The translations under genes were made by a program, and so were the position numbers. The notes beneath the pieces were generated by a model. The model saw only the letters and a list, made by a program, of their open reading frames with translations, had not been told where the DNA came from and made no database searches. DNA of 64,000 nucleotides from Bacteroidia bacterium (GTDB lineage Bacteria; Bacteroidota; Bacteroidia; NS11-12g; UBA9320), in contig CBDCFW010000003.1 of assembly GCA_965216465.1 (NCBI GenBank), positions 32,001 to 96,000 of the forward strand, written 5' to 3'. Shown here piece after piece: positions 9,177 to 40,006 of this stretch. The number at the start of each line of letters is the position of its first letter. Positions within the stretch are counted from its first letter, which is position 1.

Positions 9177-10544
9177 ATGAAGTATTTCTGTTGGGGAGCA
9201 GCACGTCAGGTTACCGGGAGTATGCATCTACTGCGTTTCGAAACCGGGTTTTCAATGCTTATTGATTGTGGAATTGATTATGAAGATAAATCAAACAAAA
9301 CGATTAATGCTGTTTTTCCTTTTGAGCCCAGCGAAATTGATGTTTTAGTGTTGACTCATGCACACATTGATCACAGTGGCAATATTCCCAATCTAGTACG
9401 TCAAGGATTTAAAGGCGAAGTAATTTGTACAGAACCAACTGCCTATCTTTTAGATAAGTTATGGACTGATTCTGTGGGAATTATGAATGCGGATAGTAAG
9501 CGTAAGGATAGGGTGAAACTGTATGGTTATAAGGATGTTAGAGATGCTTGTGAGCGAATATTAACACTGCCTTTTTATAAGGAGTTTTCTGTACATGATG
9601 ATGTCTCAATAGAACTTTTCGAGGCGGGTCACATTATTGGTGCCGCCAGCGTTTCTGTTAAATATAAAGAAGGACGAAAGGAGAAGAGAATCGGATTCAC
9701 TGGAGACCTTGGTAATCCAGGATCAACCTTAATTGTTGACTCCAATGTCATGCCTAAGCTAGACTATTTGGTGACGGAAACAACGTATGGAAACAGACTG
9801 CATAAAGAGACTCGCTCGGCAGAAGATGTGCTTTACGAACAAGTTTACGAATCGTGTGTCAAAAATAACGGGAGATTAATTATTCCTGCATTCAGTGTAG
9901 GAAGAACTCAAGCTATTTTGTTTACACTCAAGAAGCTTTTTAAGTCTAAAAAGTTACCACCTATTAGAGTTTTTGCAGACAGTCCATTGGCGTTAGCAAG
10001 TACAAATATTCATAATCGATTCAGCGACTTTCTGAATTTGGAAGCTCGTTCGTATGCTAAAGATCAAGGCAGCTTATTCGATTTTAAAAGCTTGCAACTG
10101 GTTGAGGATGAAGAAGATGTAGAAGAAATGGATTACTATCAAGATGCCTGTATTATAGTTTCTTCTGCCGGAATGTTAGAAGGAGGGAGAATACAGCAAC
10201 ATGTAAGTGATCACATTCAAAATCCCAAGTGCACAATACTTATCGCAGGTTTCTGTTCGCCAGGCACGTTGGGTGAGAAGTTGCTATCTGGGGCCACAAT
10301 GTTAAAGATAAAGGGCAAGGAGAAGTATGTTTATGCTAATATTCTACAGACTGATGTATTTAGTGCACATCCAGATGCAAATGGGTTGAAGGAGTATTTA
10401 AATGAGTCGGACCATTCGGCATTAAAGAAAATCATATTTGTTCATGGAGAGGAAGAGTCTATGGAGCTGCTTAAGGCTGACTTACCCTCAGCATTGGCTG
10501 AAAAGGTTCAAATTCCTGAACGAGGAGAAGAGTTTAATCTTTAG
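9177..10544 (+). CDS. MBL-fold beta-CASP metallo-hydrolase (RNA-processing family)
   Basis: THAHIDHSG, AGHIIG, FSVGRTQ, FSAHPD, VHGE. Confidence 0.9.
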   Translation: MKYFCWGAARQVTGSMHLLRFETGFSMLIDCGIDYEDKSNKTINAVFPFEPSEIDVLVLTHAHIDHSGNIPNLVRQGFKGEVICTEPTAYLLDKLWTDSVGIMNADSKRKDRVKLYGYKDVRDACERILTLPFYKEFSVHDDVSIELFEAGHIIGAASVSVKYKEGRKEKRIGFTGDLGNPGSTLIVDSNVMPKLDYLVTETTYGNRLHKETRSAEDVLYEQVYESCVKNNGRLIIPAFSVGRTQAILFTLKKLFKSKKLPPIRVFADSPLALASTNIHNRFSDFLNLEARSYAKDQGSLFDFKSLQLVEDEEDVEEMDYYQDACIIVSSAGMLEGGRIQQHVSDHIQNPKCTILIAGFCSPGTLGEKLLSGATMLKIKGKEKYVYANILQTDVFSAHPDANGLKEYLNESDHSALKKIIFVHGEEESMELLKADLPSALAEKVQIPERGEEFNL

Positions 10545-10554
10545 GTTCAAATCT

Positions 10555-10686
10555 TGAATGCAAAATATCGAGTGACTATCTACTTAACTGCAAATATGAT
10601 GAGATAAGATTGTAGTGCTGAGATAGCCACCCAATATTTTAACTAACCTTATTAATTTATAAACCGCCGCACGATCTCTCATTGCG
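10555..10686 (-). ncRNA. Candidate sRNA-1 (hairpin RNA; ends approximate)
   Basis: 20-bp stem 10640-10621 / 10581-10562, fully paired on the minus strand with three G-U pairs; upstream box and -7-like TTAGTTCG. Confidence 0.6.
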
Positions 10687-10721
10687 ACACTGCGAACTAA
10701 GCTAAGAACGAACGCTTAATT

Positions 10722-10739
10722 TGTAGTAAATCATTGATT
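10722..10739 (-). promoter_or_regulatory. Repeated box copy 1 (AATCAATGATTTACTACA)
   Basis: Upstream of -7-like TTAGTTCG (10700-10693) at the shared spacing. Confidence 0.75.
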
Positions 10740-10759
10740 TTTATGAAGTAGAACTTTTT

Positions 10760-10872
10760 ATGTCTGATTGTAGATGTGAAGTTGAGAAGCTAGCCTTCGA
10801 GATCATAACTCCCTTACGTTAGAATGTTCGGCTAGCCCCCAACATCGTACTAATAACTACTATACTTAATGT
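10760..10872 (-). ncRNA. Candidate sRNA-2 (hairpin RNA; ends approximate)
   Basis: Stem GUUGGGGGCUAGCC (10843-10830) / GGCUAGCUUCUCAAC (10795-10781) with G-U pairs on the minus strand; upstream box and -7-like GACATTTG. Confidence 0.55.
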
Positions 10873-10906
10873 ATCTTCAAATGTCAGATTCTTGAATGAC
10901 TTAAAA

Positions 10907-10924
10907 TGTAGTAAATTGTTGATT
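10907..10924 (-). promoter_or_regulatory. Repeated box copy 2 (AATCAACAATTTACTACA)
   Basis: Upstream of -7-like GACATTTG (10885-10878) at the shared spacing. Confidence 0.75.
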
Positions 10925-10933
10925 ATTAGGCAT

Positions 10934-10963
10934 AAAAAAAGGCTTTGGAAGTCCAAAGCCTTT
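10934..10963 (-). terminator. Intrinsic terminator of the 541-aa/390-aa operon
   Basis: GGCTTTGGA/TCCAAAGCC stem with U7 tail on the minus strand, 20 nt after the stop at 10983. Confidence 0.85.
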
Positions 10964-10982
10964 AATTTCTTGTTGCGATCGT

Positions 10983-12155
10983 TTAATCTTGTTTAACAAA
11001 TGGCAACATTTGTGAAGCTTGACGCGGAACGTCAATCTTCAGGTAATACATTCCGTGACTCAAGTCGGAAGTGTTTACGGTATAGGTGTTTCCAGATTTT
11101 ATTTGCGTCTGTATATCAACAATCTTAACAGGTTGACCAAGTGTGTTTTGTATTGAAATGATAGGGTCGTGAACGAGCAATAAGTTAGAGGCGTCATTGA
11201 TTTTAAACTTAAGCTCATATGTTACTACAGTCGGGAAGACCTCAATTTGAACACCGTCAATTGTTCGGTCTAAAATTGCAATACGATGGTATTCATGGCT
11301 TTCGTCAAAGTCAACTTGTTTCAAGCGATAGAATACTTGATTGATGCCATGCAGGTTTTTGTCCTGAAAGCTATATTGAAGTATTTGATTTGAGTTACCG
11401 TTGGGTGCAGCACTCTTCACAACCCCAATTTTCTCAAAAAATGTTCCATCTAAACTCCGTTCAACTTCAAAGTGTTGGTTGTTGATTTCAGTAGCTGTTG
11501 ACCAATAAACCAGAGCCTCAGTTTCTGAGGTCCACCTAGCATCAAAGCTTAAAAGTTTAACTGGCAATGGAATCGTGTCTGAAGACTGCGTTAAATTGTA
11601 CGACGTAAATATTGTTGAAGGATTAGGTCTCATGGTTATGTTGGGTATAAAACCATTAACGGTCATGGTGCTGTCAAATCCTGTTGGTCCAACTCCGTTA
11701 ACGGCTTGAAGCATTCTAACAGTGGCTCCAGCAGTTGGATTCGAAAACTTTAATTTGTATATCGTATCAATGGTACCTGCGGTGGAAACATTTCCAAAAT
11801 CCGTTGGTCCGTTAATGGTATAATCGATAAATGCCAAATTATCCGGATTAGATCCCATCCCACCAGCTACAGTGGCTGCATCAAATGAATTACCTAAGTT
11901 CCATGTTCCTTGCACATCGGTTTTAGTTATTGTGCCTAAATCTTCGTCGTACCACAACGATATTCTTGAATTATTGGTAACTCTCATCCCTGTTGCTGCT
12001 GGGTTTGCTGGCCATTCAAGGTAAACAGCAACTTCATCAAAGTTAGTGCCTATTGGAACCATTTTGACTTCTGGAGCTTGGGAATAAACTCTTGATCCAG
12101 CTAGGCATAAAAGGCTCATAAAAACGATTTTACTTATTCTCATTTTAATTTTCAT
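10983..12155 (-). CDS. T9SS type A cargo protein with N-terminal beta-sandwich (possibly cohesin-like)
   Basis: Signal peptide; LPVKLLSF...WSTATEINN...FEVERS...YRLKQVDFD Ig-like domain; FPT...GMYYLKI CTD. Confidence 0.85.
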   Translation of the reverse strand: MKIKMRISKIVFMSLLCLAGSRVYSQAPEVKMVPIGTNFDEVAVYLEWPANPAATGMRVTNNSRISLWYDEDLGTITKTDVQGTWNLGNSFDAATVAGGMGSNPDNLAFIDYTINGPTDFGNVSTAGTIDTIYKLKFSNPTAGATVRMLQAVNGVGPTGFDSTMTVNGFIPNITMRPNPSTIFTSYNLTQSSDTIPLPVKLLSFDARWTSETEALVYWSTATEINNQHFEVERSLDGTFFEKIGVVKSAAPNGNSNQILQYSFQDKNLHGINQVFYRLKQVDFDESHEYHRIAILDRTIDGVQIEVFPTVVTYELKFKINDASNLLLVHDPIISIQNTLGQPVKIVDIQTQIKSGNTYTVNTSDLSHGMYYLKIDVPRQASQMLPFVKQD

Positions 12156-12183: not shown

Positions 12184-13809
12184 TTATGGTAATTGTTGTG
12201 TTAAACCTGAAAAACCTTGTGAACCTCCAAAGAAGGTGTTTGAGGGATGACTTAAAATGACATTCAGAATCTCAGTGACATCATTATCTGTTCCTTCATA
12301 TTTTACATCTCCATCCATATTAATGTCGCTCATAGAATAGACTCCCGAATAATTAAACCCTTGAGATCCACCCAAAAATGTATTGCCAGGTGCTGCCAGA
12401 ACGATATTCAAGATTTCTGTAACGTCATTTCCGGAGCCTTCATAGAGTATAGATTCATCGTAGTTTACATCTCCAACCCACATGGCGTTTACGCCAGACT
12501 GACTTGCTGCAGCATTTGTACCAAATAGCGATACTGTACTGAAATCAAGTGATTTCCCTGACGATGTGAGTTGAATCGGATTTGCGGCCATTATACCAAA
12601 GTGGTTACGATGACGTACAGATACATAAACAGAATCGCTAACAGGACTCGAGAAACAAAGAGCACTGGTGCCGTCTGTGCTCACAATGTCTCCATCTCGC
12701 TGAATTAATGCCGACTGAGTTTCGAGAACTGTACTGCTGTTTGAAGTGTCTCGAAGTTCGATCATAACCCAATCTACTATAGCGTCGTTGCCAGTAACGC
12801 TCAATACGGTAGTTGTAGTTGTCTCACCACCACCATTTCCAGCATGAGAAAAGGCTGTGAGGGAAGTATAGGGCTCAGTAAGCGGAATTAAATTGTTGGA
12901 CCGCAGATGATCTGACATTGTAGTTCCAGAGCCGCTAATAAGTGCACCTTGCAAATAAGCCTTCGCCGATAAGCAAACATCTCCAATTTCTGCTAGGGCA
13001 TACACTTCAAAGGTGTTTGGAATAAGAGCAGCATCGGTAGAAATGGTTCCTGAATCTACAATTGATGAGCTTCCTGCAAAAGAAAGTGTACTCTGACCAG
13101 CAAGCATGGCTGTGGCATCTACTGTAGATTCAATTTGAACCCATTTTGATCCGTCCCAACCTACGATAGTTAAGTTTTGAATATTTCCTGAGGTAAAGGT
13201 GTTCATGTCGTCTGACAAGTTCCACGAAAGGGTAATTATTGCACTGTTTGAGCTGTTAATGTCCCAGTATCCTGAATTGTTCACACTTCCTATGCCGTCT
13301 TCAACACTGTCTGTATTAAATGTAGATCCTCCTGGTAGAGCTCCATAATCTATACCATCAATTCGGTCGGTTATGGCCATTGTTGGATCGGCATTGTAAT
13401 AAGCTACATTAGCATCTCCACCAACGCTGCTTAAGCCAACTGGATTATAAGTTCCATTATCTCCAACGGGAAAAACAAAGCCTCCTGTGTGATAACATCT
13501 AACATAGCCATCAACATGTGCGTTAGTATTTGCATTTTGCCATGATCCTGTGGTCGTAAAACTTAAGTAGCCAGGAACACTAGAATCTCGATCTGTTCCG
13601 ACAAGTCCAGAGTAGATGCCAGAGCCTGTTGTGAAGTTGTGTTCTCCAAAAATGGCCATTTCACCGCCTTTGGTAATATTAATTGAGGCAAAGGAGCCAG
13701 ATTGTCCAAATGTGCTTGTACTAACTAAGGTTAACACACAGACGGCCATCCCAGCTAGCAATTTTCTTATACCATAAAAATCGCTTAGTAGTTTGTTTGT
13801 TTCTTTCAT
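12184..13809 (-). CDS. Secreted protein with C-terminal dockerin-like duplicated Ca-binding domain
   Basis: Signal peptide; VDGYV...FPVGD...YWDI region; C-terminal GDVNYDESILYEGSGND and SDINMDGDVKYEGTDND repeats; no T9SS CTD. Confidence 0.75.
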   Translation of the reverse strand: MKETNKLLSDFYGIRKLLAGMAVCVLTLVSTSTFGQSGSFASINITKGGEMAIFGEHNFTTGSGIYSGLVGTDRDSSVPGYLSFTTTGSWQNANTNAHVDGYVRCYHTGGFVFPVGDNGTYNPVGLSSVGGDANVAYYNADPTMAITDRIDGIDYGALPGGSTFNTDSVEDGIGSVNNSGYWDINSSNSAIITLSWNLSDDMNTFTSGNIQNLTIVGWDGSKWVQIESTVDATAMLAGQSTLSFAGSSSIVDSGTISTDAALIPNTFEVYALAEIGDVCLSAKAYLQGALISGSGTTMSDHLRSNNLIPLTEPYTSLTAFSHAGNGGGETTTTTVLSVTGNDAIVDWVMIELRDTSNSSTVLETQSALIQRDGDIVSTDGTSALCFSSPVSDSVYVSVRHRNHFGIMAANPIQLTSSGKSLDFSTVSLFGTNAAASQSGVNAMWVGDVNYDESILYEGSGNDVTEILNIVLAAPGNTFLGGSQGFNYSGVYSMSDINMDGDVKYEGTDNDVTEILNVILSHPSNTFFGGSQGFSGLTQQLP

Positions 13810-13947
13810 TCAAATTGTATTTAATGTAGTTAATAAATAGTACTCTGATTTTCACAGCAATTGGTCGAACCTTATGCATTGTGGCCGAACCCAATTGGTC
13901 TCATCGAGTAATCAACGGCAAAAGTGTATCGCGAGAAACAGTCGATT

Positions 13948-13965
13948 TGTAGTAAATCGTTGATT
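13948..13965 (-). promoter_or_regulatory. Repeated box copy 3 (AATCAACGATTTACTACA)
   Basis: Upstream of -7-like CACTTTTG (13926-13919), ahead of the 541-aa gene. Confidence 0.78.
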
Positions 13966-14008
13966 TTGAAGAAAAGAGAAAAATTTTAAAATAAAAGCGG
14001 GTATGAGC

Positions 14009-14659
14009 TTAGTGAATTAGGTCGTTCTCGATTCCAAACAGGGTTAATTCTACCATATTGTTAACATTCAGCTTTTGAAATATGCGGTGACGATATGTGC
14101 CAATCGTAGAAGAATGGATGTTCAACTCATCTCCTACGTCTTTCGATGTATAACCATTGATGTAAAGTAACATAACCTCCATTTCTCGGGTGGTCAACTT
14201 GTCTAAAAGTTCATTACTTGTAGTTGAGATTGAAGATGACAATTTAGACACCAACTGTGTACAAACATATTTTCGACCTTCAAGAACTTCTCTTATGGCA
14301 TAAATAATATCCTCGAAAGGGGCATTTTTAGATATGTAACCCTTGGCTCCAGCTTTTATCAGTCGAATCGCAAAGGCCTCAGCAGGATACATTGACATTA
14401 TCAATACCTTTAAGTCGGGATAGGTCTCCAGAATTCTACTAATGCCTGTAATAGGGTTGCTATGCTCCATCTTTAGATCAGCCACCAACAAGTCATATTT
14501 TTTTTGGCTGAGCTTCTGCATGGTCTCTTCATAGCTACTTACGCCGTCAATTTTAGACATCGAATTGATGCTTCTAAGACGCTGAATGAGGCCTTGACGA
14601 ATTATTTCATGATCGTCAGCAATTAAAAAGTGTAGTGGTTGGTCCTGATCATTTAACAT
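14009..14659 (-). CDS. NarL/LuxR-family response regulator (UvrY/GacA-like)
   Basis: IADDHEIIRQG, ADLKM phospho-Asp, SMYP..FAIRLIKAGAKGYISK, LTTREMEV...TIGTYRHRIFQKL HTH. Confidence 0.92.
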   Translation of the reverse strand: MLNDQDQPLHFLIADDHEIIRQGLIQRLRSINSMSKIDGVSSYEETMQKLSQKKYDLLVADLKMEHSNPITGISRILETYPDLKVLIMSMYPAEAFAIRLIKAGAKGYISKNAPFEDIIYAIREVLEGRKYVCTQLVSKLSSSISTTSNELLDKLTTREMEVMLLYINGYTSKDVGDELNIHSSTIGTYRHRIFQKLNVNNMVELTLFGIENDLIH

Positions 14660-14710
14660 AAGTATAGACTAAATAATACTGCAAATTGAAGCCTATTATC
14701 TCAATTTTCT

Positions 14711-14728
14711 TGTAGTAAATCATTGAGA
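14711..14728 (-). promoter_or_regulatory. Repeated box copy 4 (TCTCAATGATTTACTACA)
   Basis: Upstream of -7-like TCAATTTG (14689-14682), ahead of the response regulator itself. Confidence 0.72.
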
Positions 14729-14779
14729 TTTAGGGGTTATATAGCAAATCATAACCTCAATTTAAGTGATTTGTTTGAA

Positions 14780-14797
14780 AATCAATAATTTACTACA
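14780..14797 (+). promoter_or_regulatory. Repeated box copy 5 (AATCAATAATTTACTACA)
   Basis: 24/26 identical to the reverse complement of the copy 3 region; upstream of -7-like CTTAATTG. Confidence 0.75.
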
Positions 14798-14843
14798 AAT
14801 CGATTGAGCGACTAAACCTTAATTGCGGTTAAAAGAAGTAGCC

Positions 14844-16027: not shown

Positions 16028-16687
16028 ATGGAAGATTACTACTTGAGTGTTAGGATTATAACCTATAGCTTGTTGATCCTTGTTTCATTATTTCGATTGC
16101 TGCAAGAACGCACTCGAGTAGTAATCTTGATTTTGATTTATGCACAGATTTGTCTACTGACTGACTTTCTTGATGTTGTATACATTTCATCAAATCTTGA
16201 ATTGTATTCAATTTTTAATTTGTGTCGAATCTTAATTATCTATTTTTTAATATCTCCTCAATTTTCAAATAGACTTATTCTTTATCTTAGCTTCGGTTTT
16301 TTTGTACTCATTACGGGACTTGCATTTCTAGGAACGTATAATTTTGAGTTCCTAAATTCTCATACGATTTATACTTCGAACTATGGATTTTTAGATACTT
16401 ATGAAAATAACTTACTTCTGCTGATACAAACCGTGGTCGTATTGCCTCTGTTATTTTTTGCGGTATATAAAGCAATAGCAACACCCACTACAAAATCACA
16501 GGTAAGATATTATGCAACCTGCTTTGCTTTTATCTTATCTTATGCCGGAATGCTGTTTAGTACGATTTTAGGAAATTTTATAATTCTTGATTTTAAGCTT
16601 TTTATTGAAATTTCAACTTTGATACTATACACAGTCTTTTTACTTTCGAATGGATTTCTACTTGGGGGACTTTTATGGAAGAAATAA
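16028..16687 (+). CDS. Multi-pass (6-7 TM) membrane protein, probable sensor subunit
   Basis: Successive hydrophobic segments; overlaps the kinase start. Confidence 0.75.
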   Translation: MEDYYLSVRIITYSLLILVSLFRLLQERTRVVILILIYAQICLLTDFLDVVYISSNLELYSIFNLCRILIIYFLISPQFSNRLILYLSFGFFVLITGLAFLGTYNFEFLNSHTIYTSNYGFLDTYENNLLLLIQTVVVLPLLFFAVYKAIATPTTKSQVRYYATCFAFILSYAGMLFSTILGNFIILDFKLFIEISTLILYTVFLLSNGFLLGGLLWKK

Positions 16688-17421: not shown

Positions 17422-18059
17422 ACACAACAACCATTTGTATAGCAGATGACCACGAAATAGTTAGAGAGGGATTTGTTACCCTACTGAATTCTTTTGATGA
17501 ATTAGAAGTGCTTTTTGATACTTCTAATGGACAAGAGTTGCTAGACCGGCTGAAAAACTCAGCCCTGCCTGATGTTATTTTACTTGATGTTGATATGCCC
17601 ATATTAGACGGCGTTGAGACCTTGAAGGCATTAAGGTCAGCCTATGGAGACAAAGTAAAGGTGCTTGGCTTATCGATGCACGAAGAATACTTTATTGTTC
17701 AAAATCTATTGGAACTTGGTGCGAATGGATTTATATCTAAATCTGCATCGGCCAAACAAGTAAAGAATGCAATTTTAACCGTAATGGAATATGATTTCTT
17801 TTTAAGTCCTCAAATGTCGAAGTCATTATTTGGAAGTAAGTTCAAAGACAGTGCAGGCTGTGCTGAACTTTCAAAAGTAGAAGAAGAAATAGTGGTGTTG
17901 ATTTGTAACCAATTGAATAACAAGCAAATAGCTGCAGAATTGAAGCTTTCTCCAAACACGGTAAATGCCTACCGAACCAAAATATTAGAAAAAACGGAAG
18001 CGACCAATGCCGCAGGACTAGTTGTTTACGCTATCCGTAATGGTCTCTTCAAGGTCTGA
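17418..18059 (+). CDS. NarL/LuxR-family response regulator
   Basis: IADDHEIVREG, LLDVDMP, C-terminal LuxR HTH; overlaps the kinase stop. Confidence 0.93.
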   Translation: MNTTTICIADDHEIVREGFVTLLNSFDELEVLFDTSNGQELLDRLKNSALPDVILLDVDMPILDGVETLKALRSAYGDKVKVLGLSMHEEYFIVQNLLELGANGFISKSASAKQVKNAILTVMEYDFFLSPQMSKSLFGSKFKDSAGCAELSKVEEEIVVLICNQLNNKQIAAELKLSPNTVNAYRTKILEKTEATNAAGLVVYAIRNGLFKV

Positions 18060-19742
18060 GTTTCTGTATAGCTTTTTAAGCTTTCCATTCCTTTTATAAG
18101 CAAAGTATTGGTCTGAATAGGCCATCCTAGCAAGCTCTGCATCATTTGGTAGTTTCATATATTGCACCTGATCTTTTTTAGGAGTTAATCGTACTTTATC
18201 TCCACCCTTAATTACAATATCTATTGGAAGCTTAAAGTTGTTTTCAGTCTTTGCCCAGCGGTAGTATATGCCATCATCAGCAAGTGTGTATTCCAATTCA
18301 GGAACATTTCTGTTGTATAAATACTGATCGAAAAACCAGCGAAGATCTTCACCGCACTTTTTATTCGCATAGGCTATAAAGTCTTCACTGTCAACTAAAT
18401 CGTATTTGTTTTCTTCGTAAAACCCACTTAGAATAGACCAAAACAGCGTGTCGTTATCGATGTAGCTTCGGAGTGTGTTTAGCATCCAGGCACCTTTGGT
18501 GTAAACATCACCATCTCGAAAATCAAAGTACCGGAGTCCTTCAGGACCGACTAATGGACGCTTATTCTTGATGGTAATACGGTACATCCATAGATAGTTG
18601 TCGTATGCATCTTTGCCCGATTTGTGCTCTACATACATGGCTTCGCTGTAAGTGGTTATGCCTTCTTGAAGCCATACATGAGCTAGGTCACGAGCAGTTA
18701 CAGAGTTTCCCCACCATTCGTGGCCGGTTTCGTGCAAAACGATGTAATCGAAGCCTTGGCCTTTGTTCTTGTATCCGCTACCATAGGCAATAGCACTTTG
18801 GTGTTCCATGCCTTCATAAGGTGCCTCTACCATACGATACACATCACGTTGCCAAGGGTAGTTTCCAAAAGTGGTTTCAAAGAAGTGTATTTGTTCTTTA
18901 GCTTGTTTGAAGTGTTTTCGTGCTTTTTTCTCGTTGTATGATAGCACATAATGGCTAATCTTCACCTTATTGCCTGAGGCACTTTGTAAGGTGTCGGTGA
19001 GCTCAACAAAGTCACCCACATATAGGGTTATGTTGTAGGTGTTAATGGGGTAGGATACGCGGTAACAGTAGGTCCAAGAATTGGGATTGTGTTGAATTTT
19101 GGTTTGCACGCCATTGGCAACTCCTACCAAACCTTTTGGAACGGTTAGGTGAATAATGGTCTCATCGGCTTCGTCGGAGGTGTGATCTTTACAGGGAAAC
19201 CAAAGGCTAGCACCATTGGTCTCGCAGGCAACACCTACCCATGGATTTTCATTTTCGTCTTCCTTCCAAACAAAGCCACCGTCCCAAGGTGGTTTTTTAG
19301 CCTTATTGGGTTGGCCTTTGTATTCTACCTTCAGCATAAAGTCGTGTGCAGCTGGAATTGTATTCTTAAAGATGACTTTTATCGCTCCGTAAGTTCGGTA
19401 ATAATGTACCGGGTTTGATTGGTTTTCATTCGTGATTGACACCAATTCCATGTTTTCATAAAGGTCAATTTGAATGGTGTCGGTTTCTGTAATGGTAGTT
19501 GCGTGAATTTCAACACTTCCTGCAATCGCTTGAGTTTCAGGAAGAACTTCAAGGTCGAGCTTGTATTTAGTTACGTCGTAGCATGACTTGTGGTTGTTAA
19601 GCTCTCCAAGCAAGAGAAGCTTCTCAGTTTTTTTAGGGTATTTGCCTGCAATTTTGGCATTCTTGACCCTAAAATCGATGGCACAGCTAGAAAACAGCAA
19701 TGCAGTTGCCAGGATAAGGTTAGTTAGTTTAAAGGTTTTCAT
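18018..19742 (-). CDS. M1-family aminopeptidase (lipoprotein)
   Basis: GMEHQS; HETGH-18x-E zinc motif; VYTKG; lipobox FSSC. Confidence 0.92.
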   Translation of the reverse strand: MKTFKLTNLILATALLFSSCAIDFRVKNAKIAGKYPKKTEKLLLLGELNNHKSCYDVTKYKLDLEVLPETQAIAGSVEIHATTITETDTIQIDLYENMELVSITNENQSNPVHYYRTYGAIKVIFKNTIPAAHDFMLKVEYKGQPNKAKKPPWDGGFVWKEDENENPWVGVACETNGASLWFPCKDHTSDEADETIIHLTVPKGLVGVANGVQTKIQHNPNSWTYCYRVSYPINTYNITLYVGDFVELTDTLQSASGNKVKISHYVLSYNEKKARKHFKQAKEQIHFFETTFGNYPWQRDVYRMVEAPYEGMEHQSAIAYGSGYKNKGQGFDYIVLHETGHEWWGNSVTARDLAHVWLQEGITTYSEAMYVEHKSGKDAYDNYLWMYRITIKNKRPLVGPEGLRYFDFRDGDVYTKGAWMLNTLRSYIDNDTLFWSILSGFYEENKYDLVDSEDFIAYANKKCGEDLRWFFDQYLYNRNVPELEYTLADDGIYYRWAKTENNFKLPIDIVIKGGDKVRLTPKKDQVQYMKLPNDAELARMAYSDQYFAYKRNGKLKKLYRNSDLEETITDSVNN

Positions 19743-33485: not shown

Positions 33486-36400
33486 TCATTTTACAATCTT
33501 AATAACCTTTTCTTGTCCGTTGTAATCAACCTTCAAGAAGTAAAGACCGCTTGGAAGTTGACTTAGGTTATTAATATTGATCATTGCTAATTCGTTTCTT
33601 TTATTTCCTTCTGTAACAATTATCTCAGTACCTTGAACATCAAGGATTGAAATCTTGTATTCTCCAATTCCATTGATAAGTACATTAACGTAGTCGTTTA
33701 CCAAAGTAGGGAAAGCTGTAATGTCGTTAAGTTGATCGTTTTTAAGTGATACGATTTCAGAGTATGAAGACGCTCCATCAAAATCATGTTGTTTCACACG
33801 GTAGAAGATGAAGGACGTTTTAAGCTCTTTCACATTCGCATCGACGTAGGCATAATTATTGACTTCTTCGCTATGACCACTTGCACTGACGACGGCTATA
33901 GGTTCAAACTGTTCGTTTATTCCCATTCGTTCCAATTCGAAGTGAGAGGCATTAACCTCAGAGAATGTAGACCATTCAACAAGTCCGTCGCGCTCTGTAA
34001 GCCATGAAGCCTGAATTGATCTCCAGCTTACAGGAAGATAAGGTTGTCCTGATGTAGTATGGAAACCAAAGTCATTTCCACCATCGTACGAACCTCCTTG
34101 AACAAATGAAGCACTTTCTGTCATGTACTGACTTGTGGTCGTATAGAAGGTGTCAAATGCCGTTCCTGCAATTACGGGACGCATTAAGAAGTCTCCAATA
34201 CTATCGGTTACAAATACATACAATCCTGTGGTAGGTTGAGAGTAAGTGCTGTCGATAATGCGGTCTGCAGAGGTAATTATACCATCTCCATCAACATCGC
34301 GATAGAGGTATACCTTAAATCCACCGTGTGCACTGTCAATCTCTCGGTTATACGATCCAGACACATCATCGTCATAGAAAACTACACCTGAAATAACATT
34401 GGTTAAAGGACCAGTTAAACAATCGCAAGCTTCTAAATCTGTTGCACCACCTGTTTCGCTAGTTAATGTAGCAATTTCAGTTCCAACTCCTGTATTTCTA
34501 TCGATTTGATAAATGGTGTTGTCTGAGTAAGTATTTGTACCTGATACACCTGTTGTACCATACAATTCTCCGGTATTGTAATATCCCATACCTTCAAAGT
34601 CACCCACTCCAATAAATGATAGCACTTCTGCACTACCGGTAGCAGGGTCAATGGTAATGTATCTTGCACTGTCACCATTTCCTCTGTTATTTACAGCTAA
34701 AAGCTGACCAGAATATGGGTTGAAGGCAATATCATCAACGTCAACCATCACTCTGGTACCAATGATTTTCACAAAATCTATACCTGCACCAAAGAAATCA
34801 GGCTGATAAGATCCAGTTCCTCGGTTAATTACAAAAAGTAGGTCTGGAGCTCCATTTCTACGCTCAACACCGTATAAAATTCCATTAATTGGGTCAAATG
34901 CCATTCCATCTACATCATTTAACGTCTCTGTAGATATTGTTCCACCACTTAAAATACCTGAGGCAGTACCCATACCTGTACCAATTTCGGTGAATTCTCC
35001 AGTTAGTAAATCAACTGAACCGAACTGACCTTCGTCACAAGCCCATAAACTGTCCATTCCAATTTTAAGTGCCATGGCTTCAATCAGATCGCGTCCATAA
35101 ACCTGACCTGCAAATTGACTTTTCCCGCTGATTCTATTTACCAGATAGTATTCATCCTGGTTGCCTTGGTCGTCGGCTATTACAACACATAAGCTACGAG
35201 GACCCAACATTCCAAAATCTGCAACTATGGTGTCAGTACCTGCTGATAATGTGAAGTTTAGCACCGTATCTGTGGTGAAAGTTGTACTGGCATCCAAATC
35301 TTCAGTAGAAAGTTTGACTACCAAATTGGTAACACTGTCTTTATCATCTAAAAAGTAGGAGTAGTTTGCTAATGCATCGGTTAGGCTAGAATTTAGCAAT
35401 TCGTCAGCAGTATACACTCCATCATTATTTGCATCGTTAAAAATCTCTATTTCTACGGCTCCGGATCCATACGAATCGTAAGCATCTTTTACGCTATTTG
35501 CATCCATGTCCATGAATACATTACCACTAACATATCTTCCTCGCAATCCAACAAGCTCTAAGTTGAAACCAAGGTCATTATTGGATGCACCAACATTGTG
35601 GATCTCAACGGCTATAACATTGGTGCCAGTTACCAACTCGTCAACAGGTAAGATAAAACGTTCGTAATCACCTTCGTCGTCACCTTCTGCCATGTGTAAG
35701 GCGTAGGTACTGTAATCCCAAGTAGAAGGCATTCCTACTTCGAGTATTTGTACACCGTTTAAATAAATAACAGCTCCATCGTCAGCTAACAGATCTAGCT
35801 GAAGGGCTGTATAAGTACTATCCGAAACATCAAAAGTTTGTCTGAAATAAGTTGTAGGGTATCGATTGTTCGAAGCACTACCATAGTCTATAGTCGTTGT
35901 TATGGATGCTCCATCAATTGTACCGTAACCAAAAATTCTTTCACCCGTAAGCCAGTTCGAATCGTTATACGATGTGCCATACCAAGAGGTGCCCAAGTTT
36001 GCCCCTGAATCGTGGTATTGCCATTCGCTAATACTCGTTATCAGGTGATCAGACAAGTCGAGAGCTGTTACTTCAAGGTCTAAGGCGATGTCTTGATTGT
36101 GTACATAGAAATTGTGCAATTCAACCGCAAACGTGTTTACGCCTTCAATTAAAAAGGTGTCGAGAATGTGAAATGCTGTGTAATTTCCTTCCTCAGCTCC
36201 ATCTACATTTACTGTAGCCTCTGTAAGATAGGTAATTGTTCCTGTAGGCATATTGTACCGAAAGGCTTCTTTACCGTTAATGTACACAACAGCACCGTCG
36301 TCGCACAAAAGATTGAGCTCTAAATGAGAGTTGTTGAGGCTGCCTAGTGTTACCTCTTTTCTGTAATACGTCGTAAGTTTACGGGTAACTGGTGTTGATT

Positions 36401-36626
36401 GTGTTGCTCCAATAATTCCACCTTTCCCAAAGATTCCTTGATCGACTTCCCATGACGAAACGTCAAATCCGGAGTCAATCCATGAAGTGCCTTGATCAGA
36501 CCCATCGTCGAGATAGGTCCACATGTCCTCCTTATCAATGAGGGTTGTTTGAGCAATAAGGTCGTTGGTTAGCATTCCTAATAGGATTAGAAATAACCCG
36601 CCAACAATGTTAGCTGTATTCTTCAT
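33486..36626 (-). CDS. Large T9SS type A cargo protein, paralog A (2 jelly-roll domains, SdrD-B-like domains, beta-propeller)
   Basis: Signal peptide; two W.Y.D.G...G..W...DDGAV.Y.NG repeats; SG.VF.D repeats; DGMAFDP/DDIAFNP blades; LPVSW...CTD. Confidence 0.85.
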   Translation of the reverse strand: MKNTANIVGGLFLILLGMLTNDLIAQTTLIDKEDMWTYLDDGSDQGTSWIDSGFDVSSWEVDQGIFGKGGIIGATQSTPVTRKLTTYYRKEVTLGSLNNSHLELNLLCDDGAVVYINGKEAFRYNMPTGTITYLTEATVNVDGAEEGNYTAFHILDTFLIEGVNTFAVELHNFYVHNQDIALDLEVTALDLSDHLITSISEWQYHDSGANLGTSWYGTSYNDSNWLTGERIFGYGTIDGASITTTIDYGSASNNRYPTTYFRQTFDVSDSTYTALQLDLLADDGAVIYLNGVQILEVGMPSTWDYSTYALHMAEGDDEGDYERFILPVDELVTGTNVIAVEIHNVGASNNDLGFNLELVGLRGRYVSGNVFMDMDANSVKDAYDSYGSGAVEIEIFNDANNDGVYTADELLNSSLTDALANYSYFLDDKDSVTNLVVKLSTEDLDASTTFTTDTVLNFTLSAGTDTIVADFGMLGPRSLCVVIADDQGNQDEYYLVNRISGKSQFAGQVYGRDLIEAMALKIGMDSLWACDEGQFGSVDLLTGEFTEIGTGMGTASGILSGGTISTETLNDVDGMAFDPINGILYGVERRNGAPDLLFVINRGTGSYQPDFFGAGIDFVKIIGTRVMVDVDDIAFNPYSGQLLAVNNRGNGDSARYITIDPATGSAEVLSFIGVGDFEGMGYYNTGELYGTTGVSGTNTYSDNTIYQIDRNTGVGTEIATLTSETGGATDLEACDCLTGPLTNVISGVVFYDDDVSGSYNREIDSAHGGFKVYLYRDVDGDGIITSADRIIDSTYSQPTTGLYVFVTDSIGDFLMRPVIAGTAFDTFYTTTSQYMTESASFVQGGSYDGGNDFGFHTTSGQPYLPVSWRSIQASWLTERDGLVEWSTFSEVNASHFELERMGINEQFEPIAVVSASGHSEEVNNYAYVDANVKELKTSFIFYRVKQHDFDGASSYSEIVSLKNDQLNDITAFPTLVNDYVNVLINGIGEYKISILDVQGTEIIVTEGNKRNELAMININNLSQLPSGLYFLKVDYNGQEKVIKIVK

Positions 36627-36680
36627 CTAGTCATAAATTAATCGAGTAGTGCACGCACCACTCTAATGGTTAGTTATGAA

Positions 36681-36688
36681 CAAAAGTA
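36681..36688 (-). promoter_or_regulatory. Bacteroidota sigma-A -7 element (TACTTTTG) for paralog A
   Basis: Matches TAnnTTTG, 54 nt upstream of the ATG. Confidence 0.6.
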
Positions 36689-36868: not shown

Positions 36869-39800
36869 TTATTTGATAATTCGAATTATATGATCTTCAT
36901 CATCGAGTCGCAGTCGAATGAGGTACATTCCGTCGCGAAGTTGGGTTAGTCCATTAAGTCTCAGGGGGGTAAGTATACTATCTTTCGTGCCTGAAGTATG
37001 AATGACTTCGGCTCCGTGCAGGTTAAGAACGGTTAGTTCATAGTAACCTGTAGCATTAATATTTATGTTTATGTGGTCATCTACCGGATTTGGGTAGGCA
37101 GAAACAACCGTTTCATTTTCTTTGTTCAATACAGCAATCTCAGAATAACTAAATTGTCCATCGTAATCAAACTGCTTAATTCTATAGAATAGGGTAGGAG
37201 CAGTTAAATCAACTGCGGTATAATCTAAAATAGCATAGTTCGAAACGTCGTTTGAATTACCAGCGGCTTGAACAGTCGCAATTTTTTCGAACTCTCCCAA
37301 TTCTGTTTTACGCTCTACCTCAAAGTAGTCTGAGTTTACTTCTGAAGCGGTTGACCAAGAAACCTTTGCGGTTTTTTCGTCAATCCATTCTGCTTCAATT
37401 TCTAACCATTCAACCGGTAAGTAAGGTTGACCCGCATTAATGTGGAATCCAAAGTCATTTCTTCCATCAAATAAACCATGAAACTCAAATTCTGCATCTT
37501 CAGTAAGCAATGAATCTGTGGTTGTATTCATGTTCTGGAATACAGTTCCAGGTACAGATGGATGTGTTAAGAAAAATCCTAAAGAGTCGGTTATAAATAC
37601 ATAAAACCCTGTTCCAGCTGCGGTATATGTACTGTCTATGATATAGTCACCAGAATCGATGATTCCATTCTCATTGGCATCACGATAAAGATATACAAGT
37701 ATGTTACTATAAGCACTGTCTATGGCTCTACTGTAAGACCCAGAAGAGTCGTTGTCGTAAAACACCACACCCGAAATTAAGTTCTCTGTAGGACCGGTTA
37801 AACAGTCGCAAGCCTCCACGTCGATTGCACCCGAATAAAGCGAATCTAATCGTGTTCCAGCTCCAGTGTTTCTATCAATTTGATAAATTGTGTTATCGTG
37901 ATACCCCGCAGCATCTACAATACCTGTTGTACCATATAACTCTCCAGTATTATAGTAACCTAGTCCTTCAAAGTCACCTACACCAACATATGAAAGAACG
38001 GTAGCTGTTCCTGTAGCTGGATCAATAGAAATATAACGTGTACTATCCCCGTTTCCTTGGCCGTTAATACCCAATAATTGGCCAGTATATGGATTAAATG
38101 CGATATCGTCCACATCTACTTTTACACGAGTACCAATAATCTTTACAAAGTCCTCATTTGTACCAAAGTGATCAGCAATAAAGGTTCCTGCTCCTCGGTC
38201 AATAGCAAAAAGTAAATCTGGTGCACTAGTTCTTCTATGTACACCATAAAGAATGTCGTTAATTGGATCGTAAGCCATACCATCCACATCGTTTAAGTCT
38301 GCAGTACCTATTGAACCACCACTTAAGACTCCCTGGGCAGTACCAATACCGGTTCCAATCGAGGTGAATTCACCCGTCATAATGTCTACAGAACCAAATT
38401 GTCCTTCATCGCAGGCCCACATAGAGTCCATTCCAATTCGAATGGCCAGGGTTTCGATTAAGTCTCTTCCAGCTATTTCAGCAACAAATTGGTTCTTACC
38501 AGATATTCTGTTTGCGATATAATATTCGTCGATATTGTTTTGGTCATCGGCAATTAACAAACATAAACTTCTTGGTCCAAGTTGTCCGAAACATGCTTGA
38601 ACAGAATCCATATTATTTGGGTTCAGGCTAAATGAGTAGGTAGTGTCGGTGGTGAAATCAACACGACTATCCATATCTTCTGTCATTAGTTTAACCCCTA
38701 AGTGTTCAACTTCAATATCCACGATAAAAGAATAAGAACCATCAGGGTTGGTTAATATCGAATCAATACATTCACCCGCAGTATATATTCCATTTGAGTC
38801 TGCATCGTTATAGATTTTGATTTCAACAGCTCCTGAACCAAAAATGTCGTAAATTGATGTGTCAAGACCATCTCCATTCATATCAAGGAAAATGTTACCA
38901 TATAAAACTCTTCCCGTTTTTCCAATAACTTCTAGGTCAAATCCCAAGTCACTACTCGTTGCGTTAACTTGATGCATCTCAACAGCAAAAGTGTTAACCC
39001 CGTCAATCAAGAAAGTGTCAGGAATTGTATAAGCGTCGTAATCTCCTTCGTCAGCACCTGCCGCGGTAAAGTTTGCGTAGGTTAAGTAGTCCCATGTAGC
39101 AGGCATCCCCGCTGTAAAAGCCAGTTTACCGTTAATATATACTGCAGCACCGTCGTCAGCAACCAAATAGCAAGTTAGCTCTGAAAAGCTCGGATTGCTT
39201 AAAGTAACTTCCTTTCTGAAGTAGGTGGTTGGATATTTATTTGAGCTGCTTGATCCCCAGCTTATAGTTGTCGAAATTGTGTTTCCATCAATGGTACCAT
39301 AGCCCAATACGGCATCACCTGTGGCCCAAGAAGCATCGTTAAATCCTGAATCAACCCATGATGTACCTTGATCGGTTCCATCGTCGAGGTAACTCCATTC
39401 GCCGCCTCTAAACATGACATAGTTGCTTGAGTCAACCGCTTCATAGGCAGTAACTTCAAGATCAAATCCAAGGTCTGAACTACCTGAGCTTTGGTTATGC
39501 AATTCAACGGCGATAGTATTTACTCCGTCAATTAAAAACGTATCTGTAATAGTATATACAGTATAGTCTCCTTCATCACTTCCACCAACTGCCGAAGATG
39601 CGGTAGTGGTGTACGTAACGGTGCCTGAAGGCATATTGTAACGATAAGCTTCTTTACCATTAATGTAAATAACTGCACCGTCATCGCAAAGAAGATTTAA
39701 GTCTAACGTACCATTTGAATGGCCTGTAACTGTAACTTCCTTTCTAAAATAAGTTGTAATTTCTTTTACAATGGTTGTGCTGATAGAAGCACCATTGATT

Positions 39801-40006
39801 CCGCCCATTCCGAACACCCCTGATCCCGAAGACCATGATGCATCGTTGAACCCAGAGTCAATCCAAGCGGTTCCTTGATTTGAACCGTCATCAAGATAAT
39901 TCCATGTGTCATTTTGGGTAGTAACAGTTACTTGAGCATTAACCCCTAATGCCAAAAAACACATTGTAAAAATCGTGAAAAAACGTTTAGTAGTAGTTTT
40001 GTTCAT
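36869..40006 (-). CDS. Large T9SS type A cargo protein, paralog B
   Basis: Colinear with 33486-36626 (shared GPRSLC, WACDEGQFGSVD, EACDCLTGP, GQPYLPV); YPNP CTD. Confidence 0.87.
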   Translation of the reverse strand: MNKTTTKRFFTIFTMCFLALGVNAQVTVTTQNDTWNYLDDGSNQGTAWIDSGFNDASWSSGSGVFGMGGINGASISTTIVKEITTYFRKEVTVTGHSNGTLDLNLLCDDGAVIYINGKEAYRYNMPSGTVTYTTTASSAVGGSDEGDYTVYTITDTFLIDGVNTIAVELHNQSSGSSDLGFDLEVTAYEAVDSSNYVMFRGGEWSYLDDGTDQGTSWVDSGFNDASWATGDAVLGYGTIDGNTISTTISWGSSSSNKYPTTYFRKEVTLSNPSFSELTCYLVADDGAAVYINGKLAFTAGMPATWDYLTYANFTAAGADEGDYDAYTIPDTFLIDGVNTFAVEMHQVNATSSDLGFDLEVIGKTGRVLYGNIFLDMNGDGLDTSIYDIFGSGAVEIKIYNDADSNGIYTAGECIDSILTNPDGSYSFIVDIEVEHLGVKLMTEDMDSRVDFTTDTTYSFSLNPNNMDSVQACFGQLGPRSLCLLIADDQNNIDEYYIANRISGKNQFVAEIAGRDLIETLAIRIGMDSMWACDEGQFGSVDIMTGEFTSIGTGIGTAQGVLSGGSIGTADLNDVDGMAYDPINDILYGVHRRTSAPDLLFAIDRGAGTFIADHFGTNEDFVKIIGTRVKVDVDDIAFNPYTGQLLGINGQGNGDSTRYISIDPATGTATVLSYVGVGDFEGLGYYNTGELYGTTGIVDAAGYHDNTIYQIDRNTGAGTRLDSLYSGAIDVEACDCLTGPTENLISGVVFYDNDSSGSYSRAIDSAYSNILVYLYRDANENGIIDSGDYIIDSTYTAAGTGFYVFITDSLGFFLTHPSVPGTVFQNMNTTTDSLLTEDAEFEFHGLFDGRNDFGFHINAGQPYLPVEWLEIEAEWIDEKTAKVSWSTASEVNSDYFEVERKTELGEFEKIATVQAAGNSNDVSNYAILDYTAVDLTAPTLFYRIKQFDYDGQFSYSEIAVLNKENETVVSAYPNPVDDHINININATGYYELTVLNLHGAEVIHTSGTKDSILTPLRLNGLTQLRDGMYLIRLRLDDEDHIIRIIK

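Follow-up and report, generated by a model that had tools for sequence, protein, structure and literature searches.

The window analysed here is a stretch of 64,000 nucleotides (nt) of contig CBDCFW010000003.1 from a genome of the Bacteroidota (3.23 Mb, 38% G+C). An intergenic region of 438 nt between two convergent genes (10545-10982) contains a long inverted repeat, next to which lies a short AT-rich sequence that matches the leader of a distant gene, paralog A, in two pieces. Does this region encode a small RNA (sRNA) on its minus strand, as a sequence-only reading had proposed, and is the mRNA of paralog A its target? A minus-strand, trans-acting sRNA with paralog A as one of several targets, all of them genes for cargo proteins of the T9SS (type IX secretion system), was judged to have an even chance of being the correct model. 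The sRNA is probably lineage-specific; new compared with the earlier proposal is that its leader is multicopy and matches several cargo genes. The candidate consists of the following parts:

10557-10690, minus strand: candidate sRNA ('sRNA-1', ~134 nt) with a 5' stem-loop, a single-stranded seed, a long 3' hairpin and a U4 tail, both ends being derived from sequence features
10665-10689, minus strand: predicted 5' stem-loop, paired in the minimum-free-energy and in the centroid structure
10638-10663, minus strand: core or seed of 26 nt, as RNA UUUAUAAAUUAAUAAGGUUAGUUAAA, with an exact second copy in the genome
10561-10641, minus strand: helix of 20-21 bp with a 39-nt loop and three G-U pairs, uninterrupted on this strand only

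The inverted repeat was found as described before. Its arms (10562-10581 and 10621-10640) are 20 nt each, 85% complementary and separated by 39 nt, and their longest exact run is 7 nt. Direct reading confirmed that all three deviations, which are C-A, A-C and A-C mismatches on the plus strand, turn into G-U pairs on the minus strand only. The minus strand was also upheld as the better RNA strand by the folding energy of the hairpin alone (-27.2 kcal/mol, z-score -6.0, versus -20.9 kcal/mol, z-score -4.1, on the plus strand). By itself, the G-U asymmetry is weak to modest evidence (p about 0.01-0.07 according to our own estimate, which depends on the assumed transition bias). Uninterrupted helices of at least 20 bp were counted in the whole genome, whereby Watson-Crick and G-U pairs and loops of 3-60 nt were allowed. 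This gave six strand-hits at four loci, including the window hairpin (minus strand only), and none in a control for which one strand of the genome was shuffled in 200-nt blocks. Two of the four loci are perfect palindromes, and the strand-specific helices are the window hairpin and one other. Being both rare and strand-specific, the window helix behaves as a structure that the minus strand forms at the RNA level. When the 438-nt intergenic region was searched against the whole genome, it returned only the 26-nt core and one 28-nt match to motif-2, a repeat described below; the hairpin arms have no other copy in the genome, and a repeated palindrome similar to REP (repetitive extragenic palindromic) or MITE (miniature inverted-repeat transposable element) sequences was rejected for this reason. 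The other strand-specific helix of at least 20 bp (C6:514691-514736, minus strand) is intergenic, contains G-U pairs, is followed by U6 and looks like the terminator of another small RNA. The perfect palindromes (C6:441073-441122 and C6:1290101-1290150) are intergenic and form helices of 20-22 bp on both strands.

The core connects the window locus to a small family. It recurs exactly at C6:144110-144135 (copy 2) and over 18 nt at C3:291497-291514 (copy 3). The three copies are embedded in unrelated flanks and have AAUUAAUAAGGUUAGUUA in common. For comparison with relatives, 28 genomes of the genus were used, comprising the source genome (G000) and that of a sister species (G024). With up to two mismatches, an 18-mer of the core was found five times in the source genome versus zero times for the reversed control; of the other 27 genomes, only that of the sister species rose above the control, with one exact hit. 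This hit belongs to the syntenic ortholog of copy 2, in which 108 intergenic nt, core included, are 85% identical. The element lies downstream of a sirtuin-like gene, the protein of which is only 62% identical between the two species. In the RNA-strand alignment of the four family loci, 18 contiguous nt (AATTAATAAGGTTAGTTA) are invariant. The exact paralogous copy of 26 nt with unrelated flanks and the 85%-identical ortholog beside a 62%-identical protein argue for selection on the core as a nucleic acid. Downstream of the ortholog of the sirtuin-like gene, the element was absent in the eight other genus genomes that were read (a partial match in G001 was left out), and the family was found in two species only. 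A 23-mer gave zero hits in 185,579 species genomes (one per species), as did a gapped 23-mer in metagenome contigs. A pseudogene relic was rejected, since no coding remnant was found beside any copy (best E-value 0.19 when the three intergenic regions were compared by blastx with the proteins of 2635 open reading frames, ORFs).

Copy 2 and its ortholog were used to determine which strand is transcribed. Their terminator is canonical, unlike the window hairpin, and carries A6-A8 on its upstream side in both species, which corresponds to U6-U8 on the strand reading GGUUAG. On the other strand, that of the sirtuin-like gene itself, only UUUCGU or UUCAAU tails are present in both species. The GGUUAG strand folds at -39.0 kcal/mol (z-score -6.6) versus -34.9 for the opposite strand in one species and at -37.7 (z-score -5.0) versus -30.6 in the other, with the core unpaired at the 5' side. 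A middle hairpin of copy 2 differs in sequence between the two species and forms in both (n = 2, no statistic). A transcript of the opposite strand would, in the sister species, directly enter a convergent gene at its 3' end. Upstream of copy 2 on the GGUUAG strand, a promoter-like block of 25 nt (TTGTGYAATATTTCCATATTTGAGA) is conserved, which contains CATATTTG; the usual -7 box of this genome is TATATTTG. For copy 3, a strong terminator was found about 190 nt downstream on the GGUUAG strand. By homology with copy 2, the RNA strand in the window would be the minus strand, which agrees with the G-U pairs present on this strand only and with the UUUUG tail. For the window copy, the 5' end of the model was set according to the register of the motif-2 promoter and the 3' end according to the hairpin followed by UUUUG. 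The resulting 134-nt RNA folds at -38.0 kcal/mol (z-score -4.6), and none of 200 shuffles was as good. Its seed is unpaired in the centroid structure and is single-stranded in the centroid folds of copy 1, i.e. the window copy, and both copy-2 orthologs.

The proposed target also lies in the window:

33486-36626, minus strand: paralog A, encoding a T9SS cargo protein of 1046 aa with a C-terminal sorting domain (Pfam Por_Secre_tail)
36631-36676, minus strand: leader of paralog A and predicted pairing site, composed of the half-site UAACUAACC, an 8-bp hairpin (36663-36644) and the half-site AUUAAUUUAUGA
36681-36688, minus strand: -7 box TACTTTTG, an exact TAnnTTTG, 4 nt upstream of the first half-site

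The split match of 9 and 12 nt around this hairpin, ending 4 nt before the AUG, had been reported by the sequence-only reading, and each of its coordinates was verified. The segment TAACTAACC is present at 10640-10648 (plus strand) and at 36668-36676 (minus strand), and ATTAATTTATRA at 10651-10662 (plus strand) and at 36631-36642 (minus strand), with no other site in the window. The mRNA hairpin is formed by GAGTGGTG and CACTACTC, and four nucleotides (CUAG) lie between the second half-site and the AUG at 36626. When seed and leader were folded together with RNAcofold, the suggested pairing of 9 bp plus 12 bp around the mRNA hairpin, a three-way junction, was the minimum-free-energy structure, with a free energy difference (ddG) of -15.1 for a 37-nt seed and of -12.8 for the 145-nt RNA. 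Shuffled seeds reached a mean ddG of -5.1 (standard deviation 2.4, best value -10.8), and 0 of 200 attained -15.1. Chance had been left open as the source of such an AT-rich match; since the 26-mer recurs exactly elsewhere and the real seed exceeds all 200 shuffles in cofolding, the split match is not due to chance. The consensus of the Bacteroidota -7 promoter box is given as TAnnTTTG in PMC9723704. With an exact box 4 nt upstream, the first half-site would sit at the extreme 5' end of the paralog A mRNA. A three-codon upstream frame (AUG ACU AGA UGA, 36634-36623, minus strand), the stop codon of which overlaps the main AUG, lies within the second predicted half-site. Paralog B (36869-40006), 56% identical to paralog A, was rejected as a target, as its leader does not contain the motif. 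The homolog of paralog A in the sister species gave no support as a conserved target either, because its leader has only about 8 nt (AACTAAC) in common with the motif.

Target sites were searched in the region -50 to +30 of 2635 gene starts, which were set heuristically at the first ATG of each ORF with 100 aa or more. T9SS sorting domains gave 135 matches in the genome, 126 of them above the Pfam cut-off, and 123 of the 2635 gene starts belong to cargo genes. Paralog A ranked second by cofold ddG and ninth by duplexfold, which favours its assignment as a target. The exclusive relation of the sRNA to paralog A was not sustained: the seed belongs to a three-locus family, and several cargo gene starts match the core, some of them as well as or better than paralog A. 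Complements of the core directly precede the ATG in the first four genes listed here and in further ones:

C5:82412: CCTAACCTTATTAATT before the ATG of a gene encoding a T9SS cargo protein of 3211 aa
C6:266579: ATTAATTTATA before the ATG of a paralog of C5:82412
C1:33827: AACTAACCTTATTgcc before the ATG of a gene encoding a cargo protein of 154 aa
C6:228348: CTAACCTTATTtctt before the ATG
19714-19726 of the window, minus strand: exact core complement of 13 nt (TAACTAACCTTAT) in codons 6-10 of an M1-peptidase gene (18018-19742), a second candidate target in the window

Complementarity to several initiation regions exceeds chance according to both duplexfold and exact k-mers when compared with shuffled seeds. 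Nine gene starts reached a duplexfold energy of -15.9 kcal/mol or lower, versus a mean of 1.12 and a maximum of 4 in 25 shuffles. The duplexfold top 10 contained five cargo genes (shuffle mean 0.6) and the top 30 contained nine (shuffle mean 1.68); with the reverse, the reverse complement or the complement of the seed as controls, 0-1 cargo genes were in the top 10. Exact 10-mers between -30 and +30 were present in 28 genes (shuffle mean 14.0, with 8 of 300 shuffles reaching 28) and in eight cargo genes (shuffle mean 0.8, with 0 of 300 reaching 8). For exact 11-mers, five cargo genes were found, versus a shuffle mean of 0.25, a number reached in 0 of 300 shuffles. Most of the complementary sites lie between -16 and -1.

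An origin of this complementarity is suggested by the sister species. The leader of its ortholog of the C5:82412 cargo family aligns with the sense strand of its sRNA locus over about 50-70 nt. The RNA of this species pairs with the leader of its own cargo ortholog at -36.9 in duplexfold and with a cofold ddG of -18.1, a value which 0 of 100 shuffles reached. The family loci look like inverted partial copies of the leader of one cargo family, and the complementarity between core and leader would then be due to descent. The core of the sister species carries a deletion of 1 nt (TTAATT-ATA). The target leader of this species has the corresponding TTAATTATA, and the targets in the source genome read TTAATTTATA; this is a single, anecdotal co-variation. 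Among five genus genomes tested, only that of the sister species has the C5:82412 cargo family, and the other four have neither this family nor a hit of the 18-mer. Trans-acting antisense RNAs which arise from duplicated target fragments (pseudogene-derived or sibling sRNAs) are a general class. The present family is like this class in that complementarity would result from common descent, over about 70 nt in the sister species. Unlike the class in general, the window copy has kept no more than 26 nt from the ancestral leader, and these are joined to a hairpin and a promoter of unrelated sequence.

The promoter proposed for the window copy is based on motif-2, a repeat of 25 nt with the minus-strand consensus AAAATCAAYGATTTACTACAAAT and nine copies in the genome, all of which are intergenic:

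10719-10743, minus strand: motif-2 copy a, TAAAAATCAATGATTTACTACAAAT, proposed promoter/operator of sRNA-1, with the -7-like box TTAGTTCG at 10700-10693
10904-10928, minus strand: motif-2 copy b, with the -7-like box GACATTTG at 10885-10878
14708-14732, minus strand, and 14776-14800, plus strand: inverted pair of motif-2 copies upstream of 14009-14659
14009-14659, minus strand: response regulator of the LuxR/NarL type (Pfam Response_reg (REC) and GerE)
13945-13969, minus strand: motif-2 copy upstream of the gene 12184-13809 (minus strand, 541 aa)
C3:230366, C3:281599, C5:301651 and C6:1192534: motif-2 copies elsewhere in the genome

Allowing at most one mismatch, motif-2 was found eight times in the source genome versus 0-1 times in each of the 27 other genus genomes, the sister species included. 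Every copy is followed by a -7-like box 16-19 nt later, which reads nnnnTTTG in four of the nine cases and is one mismatch off in two more. Seven copies are followed by a gene on the same strand, namely the response regulator, the 541-aa gene, two operons and three further genes (61, 744 and 919 nt downstream); the remaining two are the copies in the sRNA-1 intergenic region. Both operons start with a gene for a protein of 303 aa or 308 aa, respectively, followed by T9SS cargo genes. In both, the ATG lies 4 nt after the box, which suggests leaderless mRNAs starting 5 nt after the box. With this register applied to copy a, transcription of sRNA-1 is predicted to start near 10689, upstream of 10662. 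Copy b predicts a second minus-strand transcript from about 10872, which might read through into the sRNA; the 129 nt downstream of copy b fold weakly (z-score -1.7). Motif-2 is probably an operator/promoter element of the LuxR-type response regulator 14009-14659.

Taken together, the minus strand from about 10690 to 10557 would encode a trans-acting, base-pairing sRNA of about 134 nt, in which a seed of about 24 nt, left single-stranded, lies between a 5' stem-loop and a 3' hairpin of 20-21 bp ending in UUUU. This hairpin probably doubles as a terminator for convergent transcription. Transcription of the window copy would start about 5 nt after the -7-like box downstream of motif-2, an element that would be common to the promoter regions of the LuxR-type response regulator and of the cargo-containing operons. 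Since the loci look like inverted partial leader copies, the seed would be complementary to the 5' untranslated and start-codon regions of the originating cargo family and of other motif-bearing T9SS cargo mRNAs. Pairing would span roughly -16 to -1 of the AUG, in paralog A by two helices flanking the mRNA hairpin, and should block 30S binding and repress translation. In the Bacteroidota, initiation is not led by Shine-Dalgarno sequences, and mRNA structure and upstream nucleotides are important (PMC6847099 and PMC7797042); pairing across -16 to -1 is accordingly a plausible block of initiation. The analysis shows the helix with its rarity and strand asymmetry, the paralogs and the ortholog of the core, the surplus of complementary sites at cargo gene starts and the three-way junction as a prediction. 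That the RNA is expressed, where it begins and ends, in which direction it regulates and how it is tied to the response regulator are inferred. A more far-reaching model is tentative, and we regard it as considerably less probable than the sRNA itself. According to this model, the sRNA family arose by inverted duplication of a cargo leader, and one copy was captured by the promoter motif of the LuxR-type two-component regulator. As a post-transcriptional layer of control, the family would turn off a defined part of the T9SS secretome at the same time as this regulator turns on other cargo operons. In the mRNA of paralog A, the hairpin would be clamped by a three-way junction that involves the extreme 5' end and the start region.

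Post-transcriptional control in the Bacteroidota is known mainly from gut Bacteroides, and the tuning of the very large T9SS secretomes of environmental Bacteroidota is largely open. If the sRNA model is true, the locus would be part of a compact circuit of three sibling sRNAs with a seed of 18-26 nt, a short list of cargo mRNAs with the motif at -16 to -1 and a candidate upstream regulator, and it would illustrate clearly how an sRNA can arise from its target's leader. Of known sRNAs, FopS and GibS of Bacteroides thetaiotaomicron come closest. FopS is described in PMC11697453 as a paralogous family of 14 members with a 5' single-stranded seed and a terminator hairpin. It pairs near SusC-like start codons and represses the translation of these mRNAs, with the RNA-binding protein RbpB as its antagonist; its consensus was deposited in Rfam according to the same source. 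FopS and GibS are like the present family in being multicopy, paralogous sRNAs of the Bacteroidota with a conserved single-stranded seed before a 3' hairpin (in FopS, the seed is at the 5' end) and in pairing near the start codons of mRNAs for cell-envelope proteins. FopS and GibS repress translation, whereas here repression is predicted only. Further differences concern the number of copies (14 in FopS versus three), the targets (SusC-like transporters versus predicted T9SS cargo genes) and the promoter (canonical sigma-A in FopS versus the non-canonical motif shared with a response regulator proposed here). Unlike FopS and GibS, the present family is confined to two species, and its 3' helix in the window is unusually long, with a 39-nt loop. 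A search of the whole window with Rfam 15 at gathering score gave only two tRNAs, and at E-values up to 10 nothing relevant was found in 10400-11100; this release may or may not include the FopS model. Two small RRM_1 proteins are encoded in the source genome, and RRM_1 was also found in the control genome of B. thetaiotaomicron. Because RbpB is presumably an RRM_1 protein, these proteins are possible sRNA cofactors by analogy.

Rfp18, an sRNA of Flavobacterium psychrophilum, offers a second comparison. Its predicted pairing partners are four of 13 mRNAs for secreted metalloproteases and one mRNA for a secreted adhesin, and it is stated to be needed for precise protease expression (PMC9723704). 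Like sRNA-1, Rfp18 belongs to T9SS-bearing Bacteroidota, and one pairing region is predicted against several mRNAs of secreted proteins. Rfp18 pairs via its third stem-loop, whereas the seed of sRNA-1 is single-stranded; the two were set apart by this description, not by sequence. By analogy, the candidate would resemble FopS/GibS and Rfp18 in its way of working and would be a member of neither family.

Several results weigh against the sRNA model. Concerning the promoter, the minus strand upstream of the core contains no exact TAnnTTTG. By our own count, the box of copy a (TTAGTTCG) deviates from this consensus at two positions, and it is the poorest of the nine. The hairpin was not called by the consensus terminator scan on either strand, whereas its neighbour at 10938-10963 was; its loop of 39 nt, the AU-rich base of its stem and a tail of just four U before a G (UUUUG) are atypical for a terminator. 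Conservation of the window copy is missing: 19 relatives carry the beta-CASP gene that precedes the hairpin on the plus strand, and the downstream DNA is different in each of them, without an ortholog of the window copy. The 18-mer had 28 exact hits in the 185,579 species genomes, of which only the record of the sister species was homologous by its flanks, and 75 exact hits in metagenome contigs, none of them homologous by flanks. A further relative (G014), in which the sRNA core was not found, has a comparable motif (TTTAACTTAACCTTTATTTTAACC) in front of its ortholog of paralog A (49% identity), about 70-95 nt before the match begins; the leader motif may predate the sRNAs or may have a function of its own. 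Concerning the targets, the eight cargo hits are not independent, as three of them come from paralogs (53-62% identical) with homologous leaders; with paralogs collapsed, the six remaining cargo hits equal the maximum of 300 shuffles. When target structure was allowed (cofold), 13 sites reached -13 or lower versus 15 and 0 in two shuffles, and the top 30 contained seven cargo genes versus five and three, a ranking for which the real seed and two shuffles are too few for an enrichment claim. Exact complements of at least 13 nt were found at eight non-family sites of the genome (the three family loci removed) versus a shuffle mean of 5.4 and a maximum of 14, i.e. without excess. At copy 3, finally, the motif TAACTAACCTTATTAATT on the target-like strand (C3:291440-291560) is directly preceded by a -7-like box (TATATTTA) and directly followed by a strong intrinsic terminator. 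Transcription of this strand would yield an RNA of about 65 nt resembling the target site, which might titrate the sibling sRNAs as a decoy or sponge.

The main rival explanation concerns the genes on both sides of the intergenic region:

9177-10544, plus strand: beta-CASP/metallo-beta-lactamase gene, encoding an RNA-metabolising hydrolase (Pfam Beta-Casp, Lactamase_B, RMMBL)
10983-12155, minus strand: convergent gene with a T9SS C-terminal sorting domain
10938-10963: bidirectional intrinsic terminator of the gene 10983-12155 (minus strand), called by the terminator scan

According to this explanation, which we consider unlikely, the hairpin is an intrinsic terminator for the beta-CASP gene and for minus-strand read-through, the 26 nt are a functionless recent copy of a cargo leader, and the match to paralog A reflects shared ancestry. 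The hairpin follows the beta-CASP stop codon after 17 nt and is followed by TTTT on the plus strand, the very strand on which the mismatches weaken the helix (-20.9 versus -27.2 kcal/mol) and on which the scan does not call it. Like intrinsic terminators, it combines a hairpin and a U-run between convergent genes; unlike these, it has a stem of 20-21 bp, an AU-rich base, a 39-nt loop and four U, and it falls outside the usual definition (short GC-rich stem, loop of 3-8 nt, at least five U within 8 nt). A functionless copy is in line with the homology of the family loci to cargo leaders, with the missing ortholog of the window copy and with the leader motif upstream of the G014 ortholog of paralog A, where no sRNA was detected. 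It is at odds with the exact identity over 26 nt in unrelated flanks and the 85% identity of copy 2 over 108 nt, which argue for selection on the core, and with the absence of a coding remnant beside any copy. Also under the sRNA model, the helix may terminate the sRNA and, in its weaker form, the convergent beta-CASP gene. If the RNA is not expressed, the locus is an ordinary terminator beside a copied leader fragment.

An explanation from the plus, target-like strand is less probable still. Here, the motif TTTAACTAACCTTATTAATTTATAAA would be a DNA or RNA element of cargo leaders (an operator or a leader recognised by a protein), and the intergenic copies would be orphan sites or decoys made as short sense RNAs. 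The motif starts a few nucleotides after an exact -7 box in paralog A and C6:228348 and is found at the fixed position -16 to -1 in several genes, whereas copies 1 and 2 do not have a plus-strand box with fewer than two mismatches just upstream of the motif, by our own reading. Copy 3, with a -7-like box, motif and a strong sense-strand terminator in succession, speaks for this explanation. Against it, the sense strand of the conserved locus runs into the 3' end of a convergent gene in the sister species. In both species, it is the opposite strand that has the better terminator U-tracts and fold energies, and the G-U pairs of the window hairpin are formed on the minus strand only.

The remaining two explanations accept a minus-strand transcript, and both are very improbable. 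In the first, it would be a small mRNA for a hydrophobic peptide: the seed and half of the hairpin fall within an open frame of 32 aa with a hydrophobic centre (MRDRAAVYKLIRLVKILGGYLSTTILSHHICS, 10682-10584, minus strand), which opens with an ATG about 8 nt downstream of the predicted start site. This frame is mostly inside the 20-bp helix, and since copy 2 stops in the same frame two codons past the core and the core of the sister species has a 1-nt deletion, the conserved part is not conserved as a coding frame. In the second, the motif-2-driven RNA would act in cis by reading through the weak hairpin into the 3' end of the beta-CASP gene (antisense or transcriptional interference), for which the convergent arrangement, the short tail of four U and another -7-like box, located in the loop (CATATTTG, 10598-10591), can be adduced, but which leaves unexplained the core shared with two unlinked loci and the excess of sites at cargo gene starts.

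Minor observations were made in DNA sequencing runs and elsewhere in the window. In four DNA runs, contigs were identical to the window at this locus, without variants; these runs may be the source sample. In three DNA runs, 10737-10772 (36 nt) is matched with five differences by a contig of about 611-671 nt, the word depth of which is some ten times higher and which may represent another, more abundant genome or a repeat that has this stretch in common. A further inverted repeat (16032-16049 and 16111-16128, 18 nt, 94% complementary, spacer of 61 nt) is located at the start of the ORF 16028-16687.

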